DNA of 64,000 nt from an uncultured archaeon (lineage in GTDB: Archaea > Thermoproteota > Bathyarchaeia > Bathyarchaeales > Bathycorpusculaceae). The stretch spans positions 160,001 through 224,000 of the forward strand of contig CAWALK010000012.1 in assembly GCA_963782915.1 (NCBI GenBank), in the 5' to 3' direction. Both the position numbers and the translations under genes were made by a program. The notes below the pieces were generated by a model, which did no database searches, had not been told where the DNA came from, and saw only the letters and a program-made list of their open reading frames with translations. This document shows positions 3,909 to 62,881 of the stretch, one piece after another. Within the stretch, counting starts at the first letter, position 1. The number at the start of each line of letters is the position of its first letter.

Positions 3909-5138
3909 ATGATTAGGAAACTGTTTACGTTTGAGGAAGCTAAGCGCGCTATTGAAGCATGTTTTAAGCCGGTATCGTTGGGTGACGAAGAAACTGTGTT
4001 GCTCGAAGCCTTCAATCGTGTGCTTAGCGAAGATATAGTTTCGCCTTTTGATATTCCGGGGTTTAACAGTTCACGTTTGGCCGGTTACGCGGTGAGGGCT
4101 GCGGATACGGTTTTGGCAAATGAGGATCAACCGGTATCTCTTACTGTCTCTGGCAGTTTAACCGTCGGCGAAACACCCAAACTCGCCCTCGCCAAAGGTG
4201 AAGCCGCCGAAGTAGCCGCAGGTGCAGTGCTTCCGCAAGGCGCAGACGCAGTCATCGCCATCGAAGACGCTGAACGCGAAGACGACACACTCCAAATCTA
4301 CAGCCCAGCCACATCAGGCGATAACATGCGTGTGCAGGGTTCAGACATAAAAGCCGGCTCTGTGGCGCTCAAGAAAGGTCAACTGTTGGGTTCAACAGAA
4401 ATCGGGGTCTTGGCAGCTTTAGGTTACAAGCAGTTGAAGGTCCTAAAAATTCCGATGATCGCGGTTTTATCCATCGGTAACGAAGTCACCGAACTCGGCA
4501 AGCCCCTTTCGCCCGGTAAAAGTTATGATTTGAACTCTTACGGTTTAAGCACTGCTGTTATGGAATGCGGCGCTAAACCCGTCTATTTCGGTGTAGTTCC
4601 CGAAGATAAGGCGGCTATCCAGCGGGTTTTAGCTGCTGCGGTAGCTTCCACTGACATGGTTATAGCCTGCACCGACAACCCCGACGTGGCCGAAATCGTT
4701 GATTTGCTGGGCAAACCCGGCATCGTCGTCAACGGTATAGCAGCAAAACCCGGGAAATCAACCGCAGCCGCCTTCATCGGCGACAAACCGGTCTTTCTAT
4801 TACCCAGCAACCCCTCCGCTGCATTATTGATGTATCAACTATTCGCTCGGGTGCTTGTGCAGCGTTTAGGCGGCAGACCAACCGCAGGCTTAAAAGCAGT
4901 CAACGCATATGCCGGCTCAAAAATCTTCAGCGCCAAAGGCAGCCGAACCTTCACTATGGTGCAGTTGCAATTTGATGAACAATGCCGCTTAATCGCCCAA
5001 CCCATCGACGCTGCAGGTCCTGTTTCAGCTTTGGCGTGTGCTGATGGGTTTGTGCAGATAGAAGAAAACGAGCAATTCTTAGATGTTGACCAGGAAGTTA
5101 CGGTTATGCTGCTGCGGGGTTCAGCCGCAAAAGCTTAG
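3909..5138 (+). CDS. MoeA/gephyrin-like molybdopterin molybdotransferase paralog with degenerate motifs
   Basis: GYAVRAADT, GAVLPQGADAV, GSDI, KPGK and ADGF are MoeA-like; several catalytic positions are altered. Confidence 0.85.
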   Translation: MIRKLFTFEEAKRAIEACFKPVSLGDEETVLLEAFNRVLSEDIVSPFDIPGFNSSRLAGYAVRAADTVLANEDQPVSLTVSGSLTVGETPKLALAKGEAAEVAAGAVLPQGADAVIAIEDAEREDDTLQIYSPATSGDNMRVQGSDIKAGSVALKKGQLLGSTEIGVLAALGYKQLKVLKIPMIAVLSIGNEVTELGKPLSPGKSYDLNSYGLSTAVMECGAKPVYFGVVPEDKAAIQRVLAAAVASTDMVIACTDNPDVAEIVDLLGKPGIVVNGIAAKPGKSTAAAFIGDKPVFLLPSNPSAALLMYQLFARVLVQRLGGRPTAGLKAVNAYAGSKIFSAKGSRTFTMVQLQFDEQCRLIAQPIDAAGPVSALACADGFVQIEENEQFLDVDQEVTVMLLRGSAAKA

Positions 5139-5139
5139 C

Positions 5140-5487
5140 TTACTCATTTCTTTTAAGAAGCATCTGTACCGTGAATACCCAGGCAAGCACCAGATAGGGC
5201 AGCATCAATGCTGTGACTAATAGGTTGCTAAAGCCCACTGAATAGAGTGTGACGCCTGAGAACACAGTGATTGTGACTAACATAATGAAAACCAGCCATG
5301 GCGCCCAAGCACGCTTAGTAAACAGGCTATAAGCGGTTATGAGGCTCACGATGCCTAAAAAGCCCATGTGCGGTGGAAAACCGGTGAATGGCAGAAACGC
5401 AAGGAGCAGGATGCCTGTTACAGTGTAGAATGCTATGTTTGCGAGTTGGATGCGGTTGAAGCTTTTGAGTTTGGTTGCTATGGACAC
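5140..5487 (-). CDS. small 4-TM membrane protein
   Basis: four hydrophobic segments; coding-like composition. Confidence 0.7.
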   Translation of the reverse strand: MSIATKLKSFNRIQLANIAFYTVTGILLLAFLPFTGFPPHMGFLGIVSLITAYSLFTKRAWAPWLVFIMLVTITVFSGVTLYSVGFSNLLVTALMLPYLVLAWVFTVQMLLKRNE

Positions 5488-5609
5488 GGTTGGTTCGCCT
5501 TTACCTTTAGCAGTAGGGGTTAAATTAATAAATTTACCCTATTTTATCCAAAATGATGGTGTCTGCGAATGTGGACTTGACCGAAAAACGCTCTTTTTGT
5601 CTAAAGCGC

Positions 5610-5810
5610 TTTTTTCTATAGTTGTTGGTGAAAAGCTGCTATACACAACAACTACCAGCAGGCTTAGTTTTGGCGTCTGTTTTTAGTGAGGCGTTGGTGG
5701 CAAGTTGCAGACTGGTTGCGGAGACTTTTGCAAGCAGATCAGTTCGGCTACACCTTAGGTTTAGGGACCTACCTACCTCAGAGCACCTACCCCCTCCCTT
5801 ATTTATAGAC
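5610..5810. repeat. composite dispersed repeat (family A 5610-5737 plus family B 5768-5810)
   Basis: 5610-5737 is the reverse complement of 27827-27955 and 58227-58360; 5768-5810 matches 34136-34175 and 32505-32540. Confidence 0.85.
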
Positions 5811-5947
5811 TAACAACTGCTGGGTTGGAGCGTTATGGGTTTGTTGTTTGTTAGGCGGGGGTTTGGGTTGATGTGGGGTTGTTGGGTTTTGAAGTGGTTT
5901 TGTATGCAACTGTTTTGGGTTTGGTTGATGCTTCGCGTACCGAAAAA

Positions 5948-6367
5948 TTACTGCAAGTCATTTCTTTTCATGAACTTCTCAAGTAATCCCAAAAAAGTCC
6001 GTTGCTCCTCAACCGTTAAATTAGCCATGTGCTTTTTAACATAGCCAGCGAGTACTTCTTCTTTTGTTTGCAGCCACCTTTTGCCTTTCTCAGTTGGGAC
6101 CACATAGGTGTTTCTGCGGTTAGCCTCATCTTTCACACGCAAAACGTACCCTTTCTTCTCGAGATTGTCAACGTAGCCTGAGGCGGTGCTTTTTTTAATG
6201 TCAAACATCTCGGATATGTCGGTCACTTGGAGTTTTTTTAGGTGGGCGTTGTAGAGGATGGCGGTGGCGATGGGGGATAGGTCGCTTTTTCTGCCTTTTT
6301 GGAGTCCGAGTGTCATGCTGACGGCTTCGTGTATGAGGTTGAGGGTGCGCTGGAGTTCGGTTTCCAT
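5948..6367 (-). CDS. MarR family transcriptional regulator
   Basis: KSTASGYVDNLEKKGYV.R..DE.NRR...V.PTEKG. Confidence 0.9.
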   Translation of the reverse strand: METELQRTLNLIHEAVSMTLGLQKGRKSDLSPIATAILYNAHLKKLQVTDISEMFDIKKSTASGYVDNLEKKGYVLRVKDEANRRNTYVVPTEKGKRWLQTKEEVLAGYVKKHMANLTVEEQRTFLGLLEKFMKRNDLQ

Positions 6368-53952: not shown

Positions 53953-54026
53953 TAATCATGTTTTGGTAAATTAACGGCAGTCTAATAAGCACAAAAAACC
54001 AATCAGTGCCTTAGGAGACCCTGCAT

Positions 54027-55456
54027 TTGAAAGTCCTCTTCATCGAGCCGCCCAAAGACATATGGTTTGTCATGGGCGAATACCTGCCGCCGCCCTATGG
54101 CATCATCCAACTCGCCGCCTACCTGGAAAAAGCAAGTCGAAAATGTCCAGCTGGAGATTTTGGATTGCAACGCAGAAAAGATTGATTGGAAAATGATGGA
54201 GACGCGTATCTCCGCTTCTAACCCGGATGTAGTGGCTTGCGCTTCCTTGGCTACTTGTAACACTTATGCTGTTGTGAAAACTCTTGAAACCGCTAAACGA
54301 ATGGCACCAAAAGCCCTCACCGTAACAGGCGGGCAACACTTTACTGCAACAGCCCAGGACAGCCTTCAACGTTACCCCGAAATCGATGTCATCATCCGAA
54401 ATGAGGGTGAACAGACTTTAGCTGAATTAGTAAAAGCCCGCCAAAGCGGTGCAGGTTTCCAAAACATTGCTAGGCATCTCCTATCAGAAACGGCACAGCA
54501 ATCACACATAACCCGCCAAGACCCCTGATTGCAAACCTCGAGGACCTGCCGTTTCCAGGCTACCACCTCGTCAAAGAAAACATGCCCAAATACCACTTCT
54601 CCGATTATGGCGGGCAAAAATGCGCCCTACGCACTCATCGAGGGAGCAAGGGGATGCAACCACCAATGCACCTTCTGCACTCAGTGGCGGCATTGGCAAG
54701 CTTGCTGGCGCCTAAAACCTGCGAAGCGTATTGCAGACGAAATGGCGTATGTTAATCGGGAGTTTGGCAGCCAAATGATCTGGTTAACCGACGACAACTT
54801 TGGAACCGGGCAGCGCCCCGCCGAGATTGCGGAGGAAATCATCGCCAAACAATTACCTAAAGACGTGACATGGTTTGTTCAAGCCAGATGCGACGATATA
54901 ATCCGCAACAAAGACATTCTGCCCCGATTGGCTAAATCAGGGTTAAACTGGGTGCTGCTCGGAGTAGAAAATTCGAGTCCCTCCACGTTGGATTACTTCA
55001 AAAAAGGCATCACACCCAACGATGCAAAAACGGCGGTGAAACTGCTACAAGACAACGGCATCTTCGCCCACGCCATGGTCATCATCGGAAACCGCAAAGA
55101 CACCCACCAATCCATCCTTCAACTCAGAGAATTCGCCAACGATTTAGACCCCGACTTCATAATGTTTGGCATCTTAACGCCTTTCCCCGGCACAGAAGTC
55201 TACGCTGAAGCAGAACGCAACGGCTGGATAGAAGACCGCAACTGGAACCACTATGACATGATCCACGCCATAATGCCCACCGAAACACTCTACCACCCAT
55301 CAAGTACAAGAGGAACTCTATGGCTGCTACCGTGGCTTCTACGGCTCTTGGAACAGGCGATTAGGCGGATTCTTCTCAAGTAACCCAATGAAACGGCGCA
55401 CTTTTAGGCATATGGCAACTTGGGGCGTGACGGGCAAAATAAAATCGATGTTCTAG
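54027..55456 (+). CDS. B12-binding radical SAM protein (several frameshifts)
   Basis: PP.G...LAAYL, GGQH.T, EGE; RGCNHQCTFC, DDNF, GVE, TPFPGT. Confidence 0.85.
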
Positions 55457-55465
55457 GCGAACACT

Positions 55466-56158
55466 TTGCCGCAACCTGTGTCTTCCAAGTTTTTCTTGCT
55501 CTTCTTAGTGGCTGTTTCAATTGTTGGGTTAGCGCTTGTGCCGCTTCTTTTGCTTCAACCTAACCTGCAAGGAGACCTGTCACCTCTTAGACAACCCCTC
55601 GTAAGTGCACTGTACGGTGTAGTCTGCGTTTTGGGCATAGTTGCGGTGTTTTATCCGGGTAGATGCCGTTTGATGTTCCAAAAACCAGCCGCTTCCCCCA
55701 ACCCACAGAAAACTGCTTCTTCGGCCGTAGGGTTTAGGGGGCACCATCCAGACTGCGAAAAATTCGAGGCTAATCGGATTGCATTCAGGGGTTCGGTTTT
55801 TTGTGCTGCATGCACTGGCTTGCTGATTGGGGCAATAGCTGCTATGGCGGGGATAGTCTTGTTTTCTTTAGGCTACTTTAGTTTAGGTGCTGGAAATCTT
55901 TGGGTTTTGGCAGCTGGAGAAGTGTTGATGCTTGTGGGGTTAGCTCAAATAAAATTGGGCGGTTACATCAAAATGGCTGTGAATGCCCTGTTTGTGGTTG
56001 GCTCCTGCATAGTTTTGGTTGCGGCGGATTTGGCTGCTGGGAGCTTTCTGGTTGATGCGTATGTGCTTGGGTTGATCGTTTTTATGTTGTGGTTTAGGAT
56101 TTTGCTCTCAGAATGGAACAATAAAAAAACTTGTTTGATGTGTGGGCGTTGCGTTTAA
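55466..56158 (+). CDS. multi-TM membrane protein with HHPxC and CxxC motifs
   Basis: GHHPDC, FCAAC.G, C-terminal CxxC. Confidence 0.7.
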   Translation: MPQPVSSKFFLLFLVAVSIVGLALVPLLLLQPNLQGDLSPLRQPLVSALYGVVCVLGIVAVFYPGRCRLMFQKPAASPNPQKTASSAVGFRGHHPDCEKFEANRIAFRGSVFCAACTGLLIGAIAAMAGIVLFSLGYFSLGAGNLWVLAAGEVLMLVGLAQIKLGGYIKMAVNALFVVGSCIVLVAADLAAGSFLVDAYVLGLIVFMLWFRILLSEWNNKKTCLMCGRCV

Positions 56159-56502
56159 GATGGGGTTGGGGGGCGTTCGCGGTATCGTCTTTGCCTATAC
56201 AATGCGCCTAAAACGAGCAGTATGCCGAAGATGATTATTATGAATGGCCAGATATCTATTGATATTTGGTATGCCGCTTGCAAGAATAGGCTTAACCCAA
56301 CAAGGATTACGATGACGCCTATGACAAGAGTTACAATCATGCCGCCGTTTGGTAAGCCGAAGCATTCGTTTTCCATTCGCCGGTAGTGTTCTCGGTCGCT
56401 TCCGGGGTAACGTTGGCCGACTGTGTAGAGGGGTGCGCCGCAGTTTGTACAGTTGGTGTTGGTGTCTGCGTTTTGGGTGCCACATTTGCTGCAATAAACC
56501 AT
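56155..56502 (-). CDS. zinc-ribbon plus 2-TM protein
   Basis: YCSKCG..N.....CTNCGAPL; ECFGLP motif. Confidence 0.82.
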   Translation of the reverse strand: MVYCSKCGTQNADTNTNCTNCGAPLYTVGQRYPGSDREHYRRMENECFGLPNGGMIVTLVIGVIVILVGLSLFLQAAYQISIDIWPFIIIIFGILLVLGALYRQRRYRERPPTPS

Positions 56503-56639
56503 TAGGAATTCCTCAATCATGAGTAACCCCGTTTTGCCTTTAAGACTTGCGGTTACAAGAAATTCTGGAAAATCAGCTGTTTAGATTAAGAGATTAATTT
56601 TTCGACATTTTTGCCCTTCAAGCACTAAAAGAAATTTAT

Positions 56640-56684
56640 TAGGACCTTGGGATTTGAACCGACATCTATAGAACCCAGGGCTAT
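56640..56684 (-). repeat. degenerate tRNA-Pro 3'-half copy (att-like site 3)
   Basis: GGATTTGAACCG-N3-TCTATAGA-CCCA-G-CTA aligns with 59134-59167. Confidence 0.7.
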
Positions 56685-56716
56685 CCCCACATGGCGCGGT
56701 GCCATTAAGATAAAAA

Positions 56717-56926
56717 CTAACTATTCCTCTCGGGTCTTTTGTCTTTGAAGCCGGTCAGCCTTCTTCTTCTTGCGCTTGTCATCTCTGCCTTTCTTCGTTT
56801 CCGGTTTAGGTTTTGACCTGTCTTGTTGTCCTGTTTCGCCTTTCTTTGACATTTACAATTTCTTCCTACATAAAAGAAGTGGCTTCTTCTTGTTCTTGAA
56901 GGTATCCTTGCATTCTTGCACATCAA
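56717..56926 (-). CDS. small Arg/Lys-rich hypothetical protein
   Basis: 69-aa highly basic ORF; no family recognised. Confidence 0.35.
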   Translation of the reverse strand: MMCKNARIPSRTRRSHFFYVGRNCKCQRKAKQDNKTGQNLNRKRRKAEMTSARRRRLTGFKDKRPERNS

Positions 56927-57041
56927 AGGAGTAACCTCAATATTTTTTTATTTTATAAAAAATTAGCAAGCGTAGAATATCAATTTCAATGGTACAAAGT
57001 CTTAAATCCGCATAACAATAAACATCGGCTTGAGTAATGCT

Positions 57042-57246
57042 ATGAAATGCCCTTCTTGCGATCAAACACTTAAACGAACAGAGGGTGTATGCGGCGAGTA
57101 CACTCTGCCTTAATCCCCAATGCCCTGAAAACAAGAAACCACACATAGGGGCATACAAAGGGTTTTTCGGGCTTACTCAAGCAGAAATATGCCAAAATTA
57201 TAATGCATCATTTACTAAAAAATCGATGGAAGAAATAAGAAAATAA
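57042..57246 (+). CDS. small zinc-finger protein, frameshifted near 57103 (error or pseudogene)
   Basis: MKCPSC...EY / CLNPQCPENK... Confidence 0.5.
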
Positions 57247-57283
57247 TAGCCAACCCTAAAATAAGATAGGTGAGCTATAAATT

Positions 57284-57436
57284 ATGGAATTGAGGATGAA
57301 AATTTTGACAAACGTTTTATGTACATGTTCTAATTGTGGCAGCAACCACATTGATGAGGATGAAGATATCGTTAAGTGCCTTGATTGTGGCATGGGCAAG
57401 TATAAGCAGGATAGGCATAAGAAATATTTTGTTTAA
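57284..57436 (+). CDS. small TFIIB-type zinc-ribbon protein (50 aa)
   Basis: CSNCGS....DEDEDIVKCLDCG; AGGTGA RBS. Confidence 0.65.
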   Translation: MELRMKILTNVLCTCSNCGSNHIDEDEDIVKCLDCGMGKYKQDRHKKYFV

Positions 57437-57509
57437 TTGCAAAAATAATGATTTTGAAAATAGAAAATTGCGTTTTTTATCTTTTTCTAATTTAGTGATA
57501 TCTCGACGA

Positions 57510-57542
57510 ATTGTGGGTCTCCCGATTTAAAACCGGGGTCTA
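57510..57542 (-). repeat. degenerate tRNA-Pro 3'-end copy (att-like site 2)
   Basis: ATTGTGGGTCTCCCGATTTAAAACCGGGGTCTA versus ATTGGTGGGGCCTCCCGGATTTGAACCGGAGTCTA. Confidence 0.6.
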
Positions 57543-57642
57543 AACCTATCATCAATTGGTCAATTCGAAAATGATATGGTTAAACATTGAAAGTTGAATT
57601 GAAAACTTTAACTCTGCTCATGTCTACATAAGGCTCCAAGAT

Positions 57643-58152
57643 ATGGTTGCCATGCATTTTGAAAACGTCATATTTCCCGACTCTCTAAGCTTCCACTGCA
57701 AATGCTGCGGAGTCTGCTGTAGAGACCAACCACCAGATATTAATTTGAAAGAACAACAAAAAATAGAAGCTAAAGGCTTCGTGGATTTTTTAGAAGCACC
57801 TAACGATCCTCAAAACAGGAATATCCGCAAAAAACAAGATGGAAGCTGCATTTTCTTTACCGAAGAAAACACATGTAAGATTCATGACGTCAAACCGTCG
57901 ATATGCAGTTTGGAGCCATTCATCATAACAGACTTTGATCCTAAAACAAACAAGATATTTGTGGACTTAAATCCGCTTGCAGCCAAAAACTGCAAAGGCA
58001 TCTCTAAGGGCGAAATGGTTGCTCCAGAAGAAATCGCAAAAGCTGCCCAAACAATCGTGAAAGACTGTTTAGAAATAGTCGCTGTAAAAACGGGGCTTCC
58101 GGTTACAGATAAGAGGGTTGCTTCATTAACAAGGAAATTATTGTGTCTTTGA
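57643..58152 (+). CDS. YkgJ family (CxxCxxCC) Fe-S/Zn cluster protein
   Basis: CKCCGVCC, C.FF....C.IH..KP..C...PF. Confidence 0.88.
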   Translation: MVAMHFENVIFPDSLSFHCKCCGVCCRDQPPDINLKEQQKIEAKGFVDFLEAPNDPQNRNIRKKQDGSCIFFTEENTCKIHDVKPSICSLEPFIITDFDPKTNKIFVDLNPLAAKNCKGISKGEMVAPEEIAKAAQTIVKDCLEIVAVKTGLPVTDKRVASLTRKLLCL

Positions 58153-58226
58153 TTACAATGAATTGTTGAGCTTCAATTTGCAGCTAATCTTTTTGGTGTT
58201 TTATTTAGCCGTCTAACAGGCTTGAA

Positions 58227-58360
58227 CTGCTTGCAGAATCAGCCACAACCAGCCTGCAACCGCCAAAACATGCCCACACCAAAACAGCCGCTGCAGCCAA
58301 GCCTGCTGGTTGTTGTTGAAATAAGAGGGGCCCACAGCAACAACTAACATAAAAAAACAA
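58227..58360. repeat. dispersed repeat family A copy
   Basis: CCACAACCAGCCTGCAAC...AAGCCTGCTGGTTGTTG...CAACAAC...AAAAAAACAA. Confidence 0.8.
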
Positions 58361-58377
58361 GCAATTCAGAAGTGATG

Positions 58378-58428
58378 GATTGGTGGGGTCTCCTGGATTT
58401 GAACCGGCGTCTATAGAGCCAAGTCTAC
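58378..58428 (-). repeat. tRNA-Pro 3'-half duplicate (att-like site 1)
   Basis: 48/52 identical to 59117-59168 (anticodon stem to CCA+ATC). Confidence 0.9.
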
Positions 58429-58444
58429 TCCACCCGGCAGGCGC

Positions 58445-59074
58445 TTAATGAAAATATCTCCCGCCGAACAAAATATAGAAAACAGTCACGAAAATATACA
58501 ACCCTAAACTAACTACAGGAGCCCCAAACGAAAACGCCGTGGCTAACCCATAAACCGTAGGTCCCACAAGAGCGATCTTACTCCTTTTTGAGATTACTTC
58601 TAGGTCGGGTTCCTCGTGGGTTAAATGCCGTATTCGAGGATAGAACCAAAGAACATTGAACAGTATCGAAATCGCCAAAGCGTTTAACCCATAAGTGAAC
58701 ACGGCAACAGGTTGCATAGGGTATCTTCCCAGCAATGCCGTAGAGAAGGGTGCAAGCGCGATACTCATCAGCAAGAGAATATTGATCCACAAAACTTTCA
58801 GGTCGACCACTTCAATATGTCTTAGCATGTTTTGATGGCTTATCCAAAGAACCCCCAGGAAGACAAAAGTGATGATATAAGCGAAGAAGTCGGGAAGTAA
58901 GCCGTAAAGGTCGGCTTCAAGTGTGGCTTCGGTGCTCGGGCCAGTTATTGTTGGTACTACTAAGCTTAGGACTAAAATGGTCATGACGGTTGCAAATAAA
59001 CCGTCGGCGAGAGTTTCTATTCTGTCTATAGTAAAGCCGTAAGAATTCTTAGGTGGCATTTTATGCGAAAACAC
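58445..59074 (-). CDS. TMEM175 (DUF1211) family channel
   Basis: R.E...DG.F...MT.LVL, W..H, N...L......PF.T. Confidence 0.88.
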   Translation of the reverse strand: MFSHKMPPKNSYGFTIDRIETLADGLFATVMTILVLSLVVPTITGPSTEATLEADLYGLLPDFFAYIITFVFLGVLWISHQNMLRHIEVVDLKVLWINILLLMSIALAPFSTALLGRYPMQPVAVFTYGLNALAISILFNVLWFYPRIRHLTHEEPDLEVISKRSKIALVGPTVYGLATAFSFGAPVVSLGLYIFVTVFYILFGGRYFH

Positions 59075-59119
59075 CTCTAAAACGCTATCATTTTAACTGT
59101 CTAAAAGCTAAAAGTTGAT

Positions 59120-59197
59120 TGGTGGGGCCTCCCGGATTTGAACCGGAGTCTATAGAGCCCAAGTCTACAAGCCTGGACCAAGCTAGCCGAAGGCCCC
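59120..59197 (-). tRNA. tRNA-Pro(TGG), intronless, CCA encoded
   Basis: cloverleaf: GGGGCCT/AGGCCCC acceptor, GTAGA-CT-TGG-GC-TCTAT anticodon arm, GGTTCAAATCC T-arm. Confidence 0.93.
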
Positions 59198-59306
59198 ACA
59201 CAGTGTTGGTGGAACAGTATTTCCCCTGCACCCATAAAAACCTTGTCAAAACCCAAACCGAAACCGTTGCAGGAAACAGCGGTTGATGGGCGTTGAGCAT
59301 CCTTTT

Positions 59307-59477
59307 TTATGGTGCTTTTATTTCTAATCGGTTTTTGGTTTTGGCTTGTACGAATCTGTAGCGGGGGCAAGTGTAGCAGTTGCGGTCGCTGCAGTAGAGT
59401 GCGATTTTTTCGGGGATTTTGGCTGAGTTTAGGAGTGCGCTGCATGTTTTTTTGCTTGTAAGGTATCGGCATGCCAT
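59307..59477 (-). CDS. small Cys-rich protein (56 aa, not in ORF track)
   Basis: MACRYL....C...YC....CYTCPRY; GGTGA RBS. Confidence 0.6.
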   Translation of the reverse strand: MACRYLTSKKTCSALLNSAKIPEKIALYCSDRNCYTCPRYRFVQAKTKNRLEIKAP

Positions 59478-59877
59478 TCTTAATCACCGTTTGGAATGGG
59501 TGGTTCCTAAATGTGGGAGAAGAAAACTATTGTTCATGGTTGCTTTGGTTGATGGGTTGTGGGTTTTCTCCGATTTTTTGTGGTTTTTGGTTTTGTTTGG
59601 CTTGCATAAAAAGTTCCACCTTTAGTTAAACTTCTAAAAAGTATTAACTAAACTATTGGTGAAAAGCACTCATAAAGGTAGCGGTTGCTTATCTGCCAAA
59701 AACCATGAATAAACAACTTTTTTGATATCACCCGTTTGCTGGGAGGGGGTTCGTCTTGGGTTTTTGCGGTTTTTATGTAAGGTGACCCTCGCCATTAGTC
59801 AGCTAATAGAAAAAAAAAGAAAACAAACCAAGCTGACTTCTCGACGACCCTAACAGCAAGATTAACCCAAGAAGCAA

Positions 59878-60618
59878 TCAGACAGGGTATTTGGCATATA
59901 GCCTATAGATGCTTTTAGTATTTTCAAGTGCTTTATGTCTTAGCGAAAGCAGAGATAGGCCCAGTAACAGGAAAATAGCGCCTAAACCCATTACGCCCAC
60001 AATAGCCAAGACAGAAACCAACCATATTGTATTAAAATAGCTTGGCAGTGAGTTTTCTGTGTCAATAACCGATGATCTCAAATCTCCAAGTGTACTATTC
60101 ACATTATCCAGCTGGACAGTTATACCGTTTATTCTGTTGGGTACATCAGCGGCTTGTTGTCGAATGGAGTTTATGCTTGTGGATACGCTTTGAAGTTTGG
60201 ATGCTGCATCAGTTATTGGTTGACCTATCGAGGATATGGTGGTTCCGACTGAACCAAAAGGGCTAACTCCAGCGATGGAGATGCTGCCTAATGTTTGCCC
60301 AGCGCCAGTCACTGTTGAGCCGATGGAGGTCAGGTTGGTTGCGATGTTGCCGGTTAATTCGCCGCTGCTCGATAATGCTGGTATACTGATGTTTGTGGCG
60401 TCGCTTAGGTATAGTAGGGTGACTTGGGTTGAGTTTATGGCGTTTTGCGCACTTAGTAGAGCATTATCTGCTTTGGTGAGATAAGCTGAGGCGGTGGATT
60501 GTATGTTGTTTAGGGTGTTGTTTATGATTGGGAGGGCGATGCCTGCGCCGATTATGATGCCTATCCCTAGAATGATGCATATTATGCCAGTAAAAAAGGG
60601 TATTTTCATGTCAGTCAT
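59878..60618 (-). CDS. membrane protein with extracellular helical/coiled-coil domain
   Basis: two TM segments flanking an S/T/N-rich heptad-like region. Confidence 0.7.
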   Translation of the reverse strand: MTDMKIPFFTGIICIILGIGIIIGAGIALPIINNTLNNIQSTASAYLTKADNALLSAQNAINSTQVTLLYLSDATNISIPALSSSGELTGNIATNLTSIGSTVTGAGQTLGSISIAGVSPFGSVGTTISSIGQPITDAASKLQSVSTSINSIRQQAADVPNRINGITVQLDNVNSTLGDLRSSVIDTENSLPSYFNTIWLVSVLAIVGVMGLGAIFLLLGLSLLSLRHKALENTKSIYRLYAKYPV

Positions 60619-60908
60619 AAAAAATGCCTTTCCTTGAAAAACAGAAAACCGAAAGCACTATGCTAAATCAGTGTGTGAATTTTAAGGTTTGTTTGCCTGA
60701 GTGAAGCTCAAAACCTATCTTCTTTATCGCTCAAAGACGTCGCGTGATCTCCAGCCGAGCCTTTTTTGTATCTATAAATGTGGAGGAGATAGATTGCCCT
60801 ATCAGCAGACTCTTAATTCCTTGGCGCTTTGAAGGCATAAAGCACATACAGCCTGCACATAAGCCTTATATTTTCAAAGTTAACCTTCTCTGACTGAAGG
60901 CTCAAAGC

Positions 60909-61979
60909 ATGCACAAAAAACTCTTGATTCCGGGTCCAACAGAAGTAAGTAAAGAAATACTAAATGAACAAACCCAGTACCTAATTGGCCATAGAGAAAA
61001 AGAGTTCTCCGACCTATACGGCGGAATCACAGGTAAAATCGCAAAATATTTCCAATTAACAGCCGATTACAAACCAACAGTCACCACTGGTTCAGGAACA
61101 TTGTGGTTTGACATAATCGGCAGAAGCATAGTAAAAGAAAAAGCGCTTGCATGCGTCAATGGAGCATTCTCCAAACGCTGTGCACAAACCCTCGCTTCAT
61201 GCGGCAAACAAACCGATGTCTTCGAGGTTGAAATGGGCAAAGCAATCAAACCAGATATGGTTGCAGAAAAACTTGCCACAGGCAAATACGACACCCTAAC
61301 CGTTTGCCACAACGAAACCTCTTCAGGTGTCCGAAGCCCAATCGCTGAAATCGGTAAAATGGTCAAAAAAGAATACCCCGACATCATCTTCGCCGTAGAT
61401 GCGGTCTCCTCAATGGCAGGCGACAAAACATTACCCTCAGAATTCAACTGCGACATCGTCTTTGGCAGCACCCAAAAATGCTTCGCACTGCCACCTGGAT
61501 TAGCAGTTGCACTTGTTAGCGACCGAGCAATCCAACGTGCCACCCAAGTGCCCAACAGAGGCGCATACACCGACCTAGTCGACATCTTCGAATTCGAAAA
61601 GAAACATCAAACACCCTTCACACCAAACGTCTCATTACTCTATGCACTAAACAAACGCATGGACCTATTGCTCGAGGAAACCTACGATAAAGTCTACCAA
61701 CGCCACCAAGACATGGCAACCTACACCCAGAACTGGGCAAAGAAACACTTCAGCATGTTCCCAGAACCAGGCTACGAATCCATCACTGTGAGCTGCATAA
61801 ACAGCAACGGCAAAGACGTCAAAGCATTAAACCAGAAACTCGCAGAAAAAGGCTACATGATCTCTGGCGGCTACGGAAAATTAGCTGACAAAACCTTCCG
61901 CATCGGCCACATGGGCGAATGGAACCTCGATGGCATCAAAGACGTAATCGCTCAAATCGACTCTATTTGGGGATTGTAG
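60909..61979 (+). CDS. class V PLP aminotransferase (probable phosphoserine aminotransferase)
   Basis: IPGPT, HR, HNETS.G, VDAVSS, STQKC..LPPG, FRIGHMG; adjacent to serA. Confidence 0.9.
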   Translation: MHKKLLIPGPTEVSKEILNEQTQYLIGHREKEFSDLYGGITGKIAKYFQLTADYKPTVTTGSGTLWFDIIGRSIVKEKALACVNGAFSKRCAQTLASCGKQTDVFEVEMGKAIKPDMVAEKLATGKYDTLTVCHNETSSGVRSPIAEIGKMVKKEYPDIIFAVDAVSSMAGDKTLPSEFNCDIVFGSTQKCFALPPGLAVALVSDRAIQRATQVPNRGAYTDLVDIFEFEKKHQTPFTPNVSLLYALNKRMDLLLEETYDKVYQRHQDMATYTQNWAKKHFSMFPEPGYESITVSCINSNGKDVKALNQKLAEKGYMISGGYGKLADKTFRIGHMGEWNLDGIKDVIAQIDSIWGL

Positions 61980-62881
61980 TGACCATTAAAATCCTTGTTA
62001 GCGACAAAATCGCTGACGAAGGCATCAAAACCCTCCAAGAAGAAGGCTATGAGGTAACTCGGGGATGGGATATTCCCAAACCTGACCTCCCCAAAATCAT
62101 CGGCGAATACGACGTTTTAATTGTACGCAGCGCAACCAAAGTTAAAGGAGAACTTTTAGACAACGCCAAAAAACTCCGTGTAATCGGCAGAGCAGGCGAA
62201 GGTTTAGATAACGTTGACTATGAACGCGCCAAACAAATGGGTATAACATTGGTTAATACGCCGCATGTTTCCTACATCAGCGTCTCCGAACTCACCATCG
62301 GCCACATGTTAGCACTCGCCCGAAACATCGTACAAAGCACTTTAACTTTGCGTGATGGGAAATGGGAAAAAGAAAAACTCATGGGCATTGAACTTAACGG
62401 TAAAACTTTGGGGGTAATCGGCTGCGGTTACATCGGCAAAGACGTCGAACGCTTAGCATTGGCGTTGGGTATGAAAGTGATTGTAGTCGAAGAATGCGTC
62501 TACGACCGATTTGTACCCTTAACCGATATGTTGCCTCAAGCAGACTTCATAACAATCCATGTACCATTAACACCGAAAACCCGCCACCTGCTTTCCACCA
62601 AAGAATTTGACTTAATGAAGAAAGGCGTACGTATCATCGACTGCTCACGTGGCGGCGTAATCGACCAAGAAGCCCTCTACCAAGCACTCATCAGCGGCAA
62701 AGTTGCAGGCGCAGCCTTGGATGTCTTCGAAGAGGAACCACCCAAAAACAACAAACTCCTCACGCTACCAAACGTGATTGCTACGCCACATATGGGTGCC
62801 CAAACATTTGAAGCGCAACATCGGGCAAGCATACAAATAGCCAATAACGTTATAGATGCGCTTGAAAAACTGAAACTGTGA
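61979..62881 (+). CDS. serA: D-3-phosphoglycerate dehydrogenase (no ACT domain)
   Basis: VRSATKV, GRAG.G.DNVD, G.G.IG, RGG, DVFE.EP, TPH.GA. Confidence 0.88.
   Translation: MTIKILVSDKIADEGIKTLQEEGYEVTRGWDIPKPDLPKIIGEYDVLIVRSATKVKGELLDNAKKLRVIGRAGEGLDNVDYERAKQMGITLVNTPHVSYISVSELTIGHMLALARNIVQSTLTLRDGKWEKEKLMGIELNGKTLGVIGCGYIGKDVERLALALGMKVIVVEECVYDRFVPLTDMLPQADFITIHVPLTPKTRHLLSTKEFDLMKKGVRIIDCSRGGVIDQEALYQALISGKVAGAALDVFEEEPPKNNKLLTLPNVIATPHMGAQTFEAQHRASIQIANNVIDALEKLKL

Follow-up and report, generated by a model that had tools for sequence, protein, structure and literature searches.

A probable accretion array of gene-sized, integrase-less units behind a tRNA-Pro(TGG) gene in an uncultured bathyarchaeon

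Introduction

Islands anchored at tRNA genes are a main route of gene gain in prokaryotes and are usually read as graveyards of large elements. The locus described here lies in a 64,000-nucleotide stretch of DNA (the window) of an uncultured archaeon of the Bathyarchaeia, in which an intact tRNA-Pro(TGG) gene is followed by three copies of its own 3' part, with small genes in the intervals. The source genome (G000) is a 3.28-Mb, 25-contig metagenome-assembled genome (MAG) with a completeness rating of 93.5%, and the window is C12:160001-224000. The locus is probably a now-frozen array, built up by accretion of captured units that lack an integrase.

In integrons, gene-sized and mostly promoter-poor units are lined up in one direction with the newest by the anchor, and toxin-antitoxin cassettes are common among them. 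The ssrA islands of Dehalococcoides are site-specific and tandem, are fenced by repeats of the ssrA 3' end, and carry many genes as well as integrases of their own. The gene at which they are integrated, ssrA, is a single-copy small-RNA gene (PMC3146451). Tyrosine-recombinase elements of archaea and bacteria are described as re-using one site and forming arrays there (PMC6563490, PMC8371274). In Firmicutes, decayed elements flanked by attachment (att) sites, the cis-mobilizable elements (CIMEs), accrete in tandem with new arrivals at the 3' end of tRNA genes (PMC5704250). In archaeal gene capture, integration into the downstream half of a tRNA gene traps the element, and tandem integrations and later loss of the integrase have been reported (PMC8371274, PMC6563490). 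The Prochlorococcus islands consist of elements parted only by partial tRNAs, with fragmented integrases scattered through them and new arrivals pushing older ones inward (10.1101/2020.12.28.424599), and Caldiarchaeum carries a 1.8-kb recombinase-bearing insert beside a tRNA fragment (PMC3293823). A limited search of the open-access literature, which is not proof of absence, found no account of such arrays in Bathyarchaeia. Arrays made by re-use of a site at tRNA genes are thus known as such; what differs here is that the units are debris-free, hold one gene and lie behind many tRNAs.

The tRNA-Pro(TGG) gene and its downstream copies

The attB/attL anchor of the array is an intact tRNA-Pro(TGG) gene on the minus strand at 59120-59197 (ARAGORN; Rfam tRNA model, 49.9 bits, E 1.4e-8). 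It is the sole tRNA gene that ARAGORN called in the 64-kb window and the only gene for the UGG isoacceptor that it found in the genome, and the Rfam model gave no second match at E of 10 or below within 54000-62000. One class of tRNA-targeting integrases classically crosses over in the anticodon stem-loop of the tRNA gene. Copy 1 (58378-58428, minus strand) includes this stem-loop entirely, running from tRNA position 29/30 to the CCA end and three further flank bases (ATC). It is identical to the tRNA gene at 48/52 positions (Smith-Waterman score 43), with a single 1-nt gap, in the anticodon loop, and mismatches in the T stem, and is the attR-like site left by the newest insertion. Copy 2 (57510-57542, minus strand) is degenerate, extending from the variable loop to the 3' end with four gaps at a score of 17-18. 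Copy 3 (56640-56684, minus strand; core 56650-56683, similarity over 56625-56684) scores 22-25 and begins at tRNA position 30/31; its CTGGG anticodon loop, variable region and T loop are kept, while the acceptor strand has decayed. The identity to the tRNA drops with distance from it, from approximately 92% through 83% to 70% for copies 1, 2 and 3, and the start-to-start spacing is 739 nt, 871 nt and then about 870 nt.

An earlier sequence-only reading of this DNA had described the intact tRNA gene at 59197-59120, three same-strand copies of its 3' portion spaced about 740, 870 and 870 bp apart, and the start of copies 1 and 3 at the anticodon stem. All of this was confirmed on remeasurement, with copy 1 solid, copy 3 clear and copy 2 weaker, and the genome-wide blastn search with the tRNA 3' part that it had proposed recovered copy 1 at E 1.6e-11.

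In principle, such pieces could resemble the tRNA by chance, stem from tandem duplication of its gene followed by decay, function as split (3'-half) tRNA genes or have been inserted from RNA. The T loop is common to many tRNAs and therefore inflates weak scores, which lends this view some substance. Two sets of controls bear on it. When the genome was scanned on both strands as 82,044 overlapping 160-nt segments, with a 58-nt query made up of the 3' half and its flank, 26 segments scored at least 18 and 14 at least 22, and all 14 of the latter are true tRNAs or tRNA fragments, copies 1 and 3 among them. Control matches, on the wrong strand or side within 15 kb of all 46 tRNAs, reach 17-19. When the 1808-nt interval on the distal side of copy 1 was shuffled 1000 times with its dinucleotide composition preserved, the maxima had a mean of 9.9 (sd 1.3), reached 18 in 0.1% (1/1000) and never 22. 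The distal copies, which the sequence-only reading had considered might score no better than shuffled sequence, exceed all 1000 shuffles in the case of copy 3 and 999 of them in the case of copy 2. The best score on the opposite strand of the same interval is 13, and that in the remaining ~61 kb of the window, both strands taken together, is 16. Because of the shuffle and genome-wide controls, a chance origin is disfavoured. Neither ARAGORN nor Rfam called any of the three copies as a tRNA, and copy 1 has the loop deletion and T-stem mismatches noted above, which speaks against working split genes. The units between the copies are dissimilar, one interspersed repeat (repeat A, see below) excepted, and this argues against tandem duplication. 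An origin of the copies by any of these routes is therefore considered very improbable.

The empty site and the same slot in relatives

A DNA search covered 40 relatives, and the locus was examined in 14 of them. A block of radical-SAM, membrane and Zn-ribbon genes (54000-56570 in the window) is conserved at 77-81% identity in relatives, while the DNA between it and tRNA-Pro(TGG) is not conserved. The first gene of the block, which forms the ancestral flank, encodes a Zn-ribbon membrane protein (56155-56520, minus strand; Pfam, relatives). In G012 the site is empty and the block begins 78 bp after tRNA-Pro(TGG). The conserved promoter region of the Zn-ribbon gene lies 79 nt past the end of the G012 tRNA and 73 nt past copy 3; because of this near-equal spacing, copy 3 occupies the position of the ancestral tRNA 3' half. 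From this and the empty site in G012, we infer that about 2.5 kb was inserted by att-duplicating events of the tyrosine-integrase type. An empty site had been named as something to look for, and relatives with the same genes in the same order and no repeats as a result that would tell against capture; the former is present in G012 and the latter was not encountered among the relatives examined.

The slot is occupied in other ways elsewhere. Further att copies are present in four of the 14 relatives (G007, G002, G015 and G004), with one 962-bp unit and att copy in G007, a 744-bp unit (PIN toxin plus partner) and a 1989-bp unit in G002, and a 557-bp unit in G015. In G010 and G023 the slot is 2.8-3.2 kb long with a common 147-aa open reading frame (ORF), in G001 it holds 3.9 kb of membrane proteins, and in G014 it contains unrelated DNA, all of these without att copies. 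Such att-less occupants are what would be expected of a generic hypervariable island with illegitimate or homologous turnover, in which only copy 1, and perhaps copy 3, was made by an integrase; a variant of the same idea is one composite element with internal att copies. The weakness of copy 2 points in the same direction. Against this stand three same-strand copies with graded decay within 2.5 kb, matched by none on the opposite strand or in the rest of the window, and the recurrence of the pattern at nine tRNAs of the genome. A hypervariable island or composite element is accordingly held to be unlikely, if clearly less so than chance.

In the accretion array that is preferred here, the region from the anticodon stem to the 3' end of tRNA-Pro(TGG) would be the attachment site for tyrosine integrases circulating in a Bathyarchaeia-like genus. 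Each insertion would rebuild the tRNA and displace its former 3' part downstream, together with all that lay behind that part. A minimum of two such events, and probably three, would have given a 2.5-kb accretion array of the order tRNA, TMEM175, copy 1, repeat A plus YkgJ, copy 2, small ORFs, copy 3 and old flank, and the units would be captured genes fenced by decaying att copies. The graded decay of the copies fits a series of events in which the tRNA 3' part is replaced and the old one displaced. We infer integrases as the makers of the duplications, and likewise the order of events and the route by which the units came to be gene-sized: they may have shrunk in place or may have been small on arrival, brought in by att x att recombination with help in trans, and the two routes are rated nearly even. 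The proposal of the sequence-only reading that the repeats are att-type duplications agrees with their single orientation, their start at the anticodon stem and their reach into the 3' flank, and its placing of the newest unit nearest the tRNA fits the fall of identity with distance.

A side observation on the same tRNA concerns G010:C4 (L014/L015), where a 51/53 copy of the tRNA-Pro(TGG) 3' part lies on the same strand 17.6 kb away on the 5' side of the gene. This is the wrong side for simple integration, and the copy may reflect a rearrangement between att copies.

Units and cargo of the array

Unit 1 (58429-59119, minus strand; 691 bp, GC 0.44) holds one complete gene of the TMEM175 family (58445-59074, minus strand; Pfam PF06736, E 5.9e-23), which starts 45 nt past the tRNA and stops 16 nt short of copy 1. 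Unit 2 (57543-58377; about 838 bp, GC 0.40) contains a gene for a 169-aa CxxCxxCC protein of the YkgJ type (57643-58152, plus strand; Pfam PF03692, E 2.2e-11) together with repeat A. In unit 3 (56685-57509; about 825-831 bp, GC 0.36) there are three small ORFs: a 50-aa Zn-ribbon-like ORF with weak family matches only (57284-57436, plus strand), a 53-aa ORF (57085-57246, plus strand) and a basic 43-aa ORF (56721-56852, minus strand), the last two without a family match in Pfam. Since the 50-aa and 53-aa ORFs recur as a conserved pair in G003 and G021, and the basic one is conserved in G016, these small ORFs are probably real genes.

Units 1-3 showed no similarity to each other or to 15 other units of the genome, repeat A excepted, in agreement with the earlier description of unrelated cargo in each interval. 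A search of the ORF list, Pfam and tblastn found no remnant of integrase, replication or transfer genes in the three units.

Repeat A is present in unit 2 as one interspersed copy of ~140 nt (58227-58364) of a family recognized by blastn in the genome. There are 73 matches in G000 at E of 1e-4 or below, 31 of them at least 115 nt long; the repeat has conserved blocks and an internal inverted repeat, and occurs in congeners as well. It is not specific to tRNAs, with ~8 of the 73 copies within 3 kb of one, and was ruled out as an att arm for this reason. As a structured RNA it was also rejected: an alifold analysis of the 31 aligned long copies gave almost no consensus structure, single sequences folded no more stably than their shuffled versions (z scores -1.3 and -1.6), and no Rfam family matched. 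Repeat A may be an element resembling miniature inverted-repeat transposable elements. It is apparently missing from the matching junction of a 93%-identical relative in one sequencing run (X1, see below).

Integrases

The sequence-only reading had found the window free of integrases and had pointed to the rest of the genome as a place to look for a tyrosine recombinase. The first observation was upheld, as C12:160001-224000 gave no match to PF00589 or PF16795 and no tblastn match to integrases of congeners. The wider search of G000 brought to light fragments and no intact gene; these lie on C11, C15, C25, C12:392.9-393.1 kb, C18, C19, C23 and C24, and some of them adjoin tRNAs. No strong PF00589 match was obtained in the genome (best E 7.9e-6), and not even a XerA-type recombinase was detected, although a gene of this type may lie in the unassembled part of the MAG. 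Because G000 has no intact integrase, the tRNA-Pro(TGG) array is probably frozen at present.

Congeners are richer in such genes: of the 30 searched, 29 have PF00589 matches that exceed the cut-off, many of them in open frames of 300-500 aa. An intact integrase of 334 aa (PF00589, E 1.6e-20) is encoded on contig C56 of G007, at 4952-5956 on the minus strand of locus L042 (G007:C56:11000-18981), where it directly adjoins a YkgJ homologue. A 3' fragment of tRNA-Ala(CGC) (positions 53-76) lies inside its N-terminal coding region. The location of an att site within the integrase gene is the arrangement known from elements of the SSV (Sulfolobus spindle-shaped virus) type (PMC7253208), and the G007 integrase shares it. 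The hallmark of such integration, an Int(C) part following the tRNA and an Int(N) part running into the distal copy, was not found at the tRNA-Pro(TGG) array, where the frames reading through the copies are not integrase-like.

Recurrence at other tRNA genes

In G000, nine tRNA genes are followed downstream, on the same strand, by copies of their 3' part. Copies scoring at least 22 lie behind Met, Leu(TAG) (four copies), Thr(GGT), Ser(CGA), Leu(GAG), Pro(GGG) and Pro(TGG), and at tRNA-Pro(CGG) copies lie 0.95, 2.2 and 25 kb downstream, the middle one marginal; no wrong-strand match in the tRNA neighbourhoods of this genome exceeds 19. The tRNA-Ser(CGA) copy takes in intron sequence and several copies take in the 3' flank. 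The duplication thus occurred at the DNA level, which is a further point against split tRNA genes and RNA-derived insertions.

Thirteen of the 18 units of G000 are at most 1.3 kb long, or nine of 15 when three marginal copies are set aside, and these short units hold one complete gene or a toxin-antitoxin pair without gene debris. According to Pfam, the contents of these short units include DUF433 plus DUF5615, HicB plus HicA, a lipocalin, a GNAT acetyltransferase, an MFS transporter, CorA and two ORFs without a family.

The ninth array (L049; G000:C12:389200-393330) lies outside the window. It is anchored at a tRNA-Arg(CCT)-like gene near 393.2 kb that ARAGORN did not call, and has two exact 25-nt copies of the T arm and acceptor, 2.6 and 3.8 kb downstream. 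Unit 1 begins directly after the tRNA with a 110-aa ORF without a Pfam family, followed by a PAS histidine kinase, and unit 2 holds CorA alone. Residues 59-138 of the G007 integrase match this place in tblastn (36% identity), overlapping the 110-aa ORF. As only this N-terminal integrase fragment is retained in unit 1, integrase-bearing elements do decay in place in G000.

Two other loci look like small integrated elements of the kind that duplicates the 5' part of the tRNA. At one of them, tRNA-Gly(TCC), the 5' half of the gene (positions 1-42) recurs 2.96 kb upstream with a score of 42 (G000:C24:151783-154741), and a 158-aa fragment of an SSV-type integrase (PF16795) lies in between. The other is tRNA-Pro(GGG), with a 5'-part copy 4.4 kb upstream (G000:C23:172328-176712) and a C-terminal integrase fragment with stop codons just before the gene. 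In addition, a tRNA-Leu-like sequence at G000:C12:396626 is not called by ARAGORN, and a sequence at G000:C13:6431-6503 resembles tRNA-Pro(GGG) (score 52) with a changed anticodon loop; the two may be missed tRNAs or pseudo-tRNAs.

Strain-level and metagenome variation

Some short contigs of G000 are 96-98% identical to parts of larger ones (C7/C25:18331-24709, C5/C22:179478-207732 and C2/C17), and are thus either co-binned strain variants or real duplications. C7 and the 18.3-24.7 kb part of C25, which are 96-97% identical, differ in the island behind tRNA-Pro(CGG). Homology extends through the GNAT unit and its att copy, is lost within 10 nt after the copy and returns after 620-770 bp of differing DNA. 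A putative att remnant at the distal side (C25:19914-19931) was rejected, as its score of 12 lies inside the null range (99th percentile 13).

Four sequencing runs were searched as Logan contigs; the highest share of sampled words found in any run was 0.14, and uncovered parts in X2, X3 and X5 are not evidence of absence. Short contigs from X2 and X3 that are nearly identical to the window span copies 2 and 3 and portions of TMEM175, and independently support the local sequence. One 3.2-kb contig of run X1 is ~93% identical to 56668-58153, joins a tRNA-like piece placed at 59134 and is then unlike the window, and a second contig has the last 77 nt of TMEM175 between two pieces resembling the tRNA 3' half. 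The joints (58153>59134 and 58521>59113; minimum likeness 88, sides of 30 and 48 letters) are weak hints only, because their target sequence occurs twice in the stretch, in the tRNA and in copy 1, and their placement is ambiguous. If real, the first would represent a relative with units 3 and 2 and without repeat A, copy 1 and TMEM175 at this place, and the second a TMEM175 unit eroded by internal deletion. Decay in place may thus also have occurred in a related population, to the extent that these joints are real. The fact that this relative keeps 56668-58153 as one block is also what a hypervariable island or composite element would predict.

TMEM175 and YkgJ at other loci

The TMEM175 gene is single-copy in G000. 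Its orthologue in G001, G010 and G023 adjoins a block equal to G000 C18:43358-50027, next to an integrase-like region in G001 and 1 kb behind tRNA-Arg in G023, and is located elsewhere in G012. Its nucleotide identity is 72%, as compared with 71-76% for the neighbouring block, and the homology extends from ~40-60 nt ahead of the start as far as the stop codon. The closest YkgJ homologues are found in G001, G002, G012, G004 and G019 (~80% nucleotide and 76-78% amino acid identity), with homology limited to the gene and ~65 nt; these five congeners provide four contexts, the flanks in G004 and G019 being alike. An AT-rich palindrome-like motif flanking YkgJ in G001 and G012 looked like ordinary archaeal promoter or terminator context.

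More distant YkgJ homologues also occur near tRNAs. One lies 0.7 kb behind tRNA-Pro(TGG) in G014, without att copies, another 105 nt behind tRNA-Asp in the MAG at L052, and a third in a Bathyarchaeia MAG (L050), where a VapBC-like pair and two tRNA-Pro(TGG) fragments precede it. The two tRNA-Pro fragments of L050 enclose a 545-bp unit with a small gene, and G000 has an 81%-identical gene next to tRNA-Gln(CTG).

Att copies themselves are scarce near these floating genes. A search around TMEM175 and YkgJ homologues in relatives gave three scattered fragments at a score of at least 20, and noise only at a score of at least 15. The sole fragment adjacent to a gene was one of tRNA-Ala in L042, ~190 nt from the YkgJ homologue. 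Of 15 metagenome loci of TMEM175, on contigs mostly 1-4 kb long, none had an intact tRNA; three had fragments scoring at least 19, which lay outside the gene in two, namely one of tRNA-Arg at a contig edge (L065) and one of tRNA-Ala (L063). Given the shortness of the contigs, these loci carry little weight. The floating genes fit units that move between tRNA islands, and they also fit long residence of YkgJ at tRNA-Pro combined with ordinary rearrangement.

How the units became gene-sized

Several observations weigh against the accretion array. The TMEM175 gene takes up 91% of unit 1 with only 45 and 16 nt to the att sites, and coding shares are similarly high in the GNAT (95%), MFS (95%), DUF433/DUF5615 (90%), HicAB (78%) and CorA (75%) units; random deletion does not easily yield such tight packing of complete genes. 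There is no integrase remnant of any kind in units 1-3. The CorA unit at tRNA-Arg(CCT) is recent, since the 25-nt att copies on its flanks are exact, yet it is already integrase-less. Copy 2 is marginal: on its own it is not significant genome-wide, though it beats 999 of 1000 local shuffles, and it is credible by its place and strand rather than by score alone. As a YkgJ gene stands beside tRNA-Pro(TGG) in G014 and in the L050 MAG, unit 2 may be old rather than a separate insertion. Finally, in the tRNA-Pro(CGG) island C7 and C25 are set apart by two more gene-sized indels, of 994 and 631 bp, neither with an att site at its edges. Not all turnover is therefore att-mediated, and these indels would also fit a hypervariable island.

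The packing of the short units and the scatter of their genes leave room for a second explanation, in which the units behave as integron-like cassettes. Each would consist of one gene and one att site, excised as a small circle by an integrase acting in trans and re-inserted at a tRNA or att copy; the integrase might come from an episomal or an SSV-type 'suicidal' element, and other tRNAs sharing the T-loop core would be usable as targets. The small size and clean content of most units argue for this, as does the position of the single-copy TMEM175 gene at another conserved locus beside tRNA-Arg or an integrase remnant in G001, G010 and G023. The four contexts of YkgJ, with distant homologues beside tRNA-Pro, tRNA-Asp and an integrase with a tRNA-Ala fragment, point the same way, and so do the kinship of the L050 unit with the gene beside tRNA-Gln(CTG) and the break in C7/C25 homology no more than 10 nt past an att copy. 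On the other hand, no circular junction was found in the assembled Logan contigs, no identical unit occurs in two arrays and G000 has no intact integrase. The floating genes have no adjoining att copy in most relatives, two of the three gene-sized C7/C25 differences are without att edges, the distal remnant at the third is not significant, and decay in place has been demonstrated at tRNA-Arg(CCT). Cassettes of this kind are thus a tentative alternative, clearly less likely than a frozen accretion array. With the same modest likelihood, the genus may have a tRNA-based counterpart of the integron, in which the shared T-loop core would let units hop between islands of different tRNAs; such hopping would explain the presence of TMEM175, YkgJ and the small ORF behind different tRNAs, and the debris-free, one-gene units.

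Comparison with described systems

The accretion array resembles CIMEs in that att-flanked units without integration genes stand in tandem at a tRNA 3' end: unit 1 is bounded by the tRNA and copy 1, units 2 and 3 each by two copies, and there is no recombinase. In both, the sequence of events would be integration, then decay, then renewed integration (PMC5704250). CIMEs are usually several kb long and recognizably derived from integrative and conjugative or integrative and mobilizable elements, whereas the units here are 0.7-0.85 kb, hold one gene and have no remnants of a parent. Recognizable descent from an autonomous element was not found in units 1-3 and is seen in unit 1 at tRNA-Arg(CCT). 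The host, moreover, is an archaeon without a conjugation context, unlike the Firmicutes in which CIMEs are found.

Archaeal gene capture by elements of the SSV and pNOB8 types is alike in that the chromosome captures genes of an element, as is proposed for this array. The array units are far smaller than the elements described, and the Int(N)/Int(C) borders of the SSV type, present at tRNA-Arg(CCT), are lacking at tRNA-Pro(TGG). The tycheposons that build the Prochlorococcus islands are bacterial and are defined by recombinase and replication modules, of which the array has none, and its regular gene-by-gene spacing does not appear in the available part of the Prochlorococcus account (10.1101/2020.12.28.424599).

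With integrons the array shares the layout of gene-sized units separated by recombination sites. IntI, attI and attC are all absent from it, and its fences are 3' parts of a tRNA; a repeat scan, with no dedicated attC model run, found no shared inverted-repeat site at the unit ends. The array is therefore not an integron, though similar in layout. The proposal of the sequence-only reading, repeated capture at one tRNA in the manner of an integron-style array mobilized in trans, stands in its first part, which the att duplications and the empty site support, and is a tentative alternative in its second.

Significance

In this abundant uncultured archaeal lineage, the islands at no fewer than nine tRNAs consist mostly of one-gene units fenced by att copies. 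If these units are mere remnants, they would offer a clean example, with an empty-site control, of the capture of genes from integrating elements by an archaeal chromosome. If the units move as such, the islands would amount to an archaeal platform for cassette exchange without a dedicated integron integrase, and the plasticity of Bathyarchaeia genomes would become open to study gene by gene.

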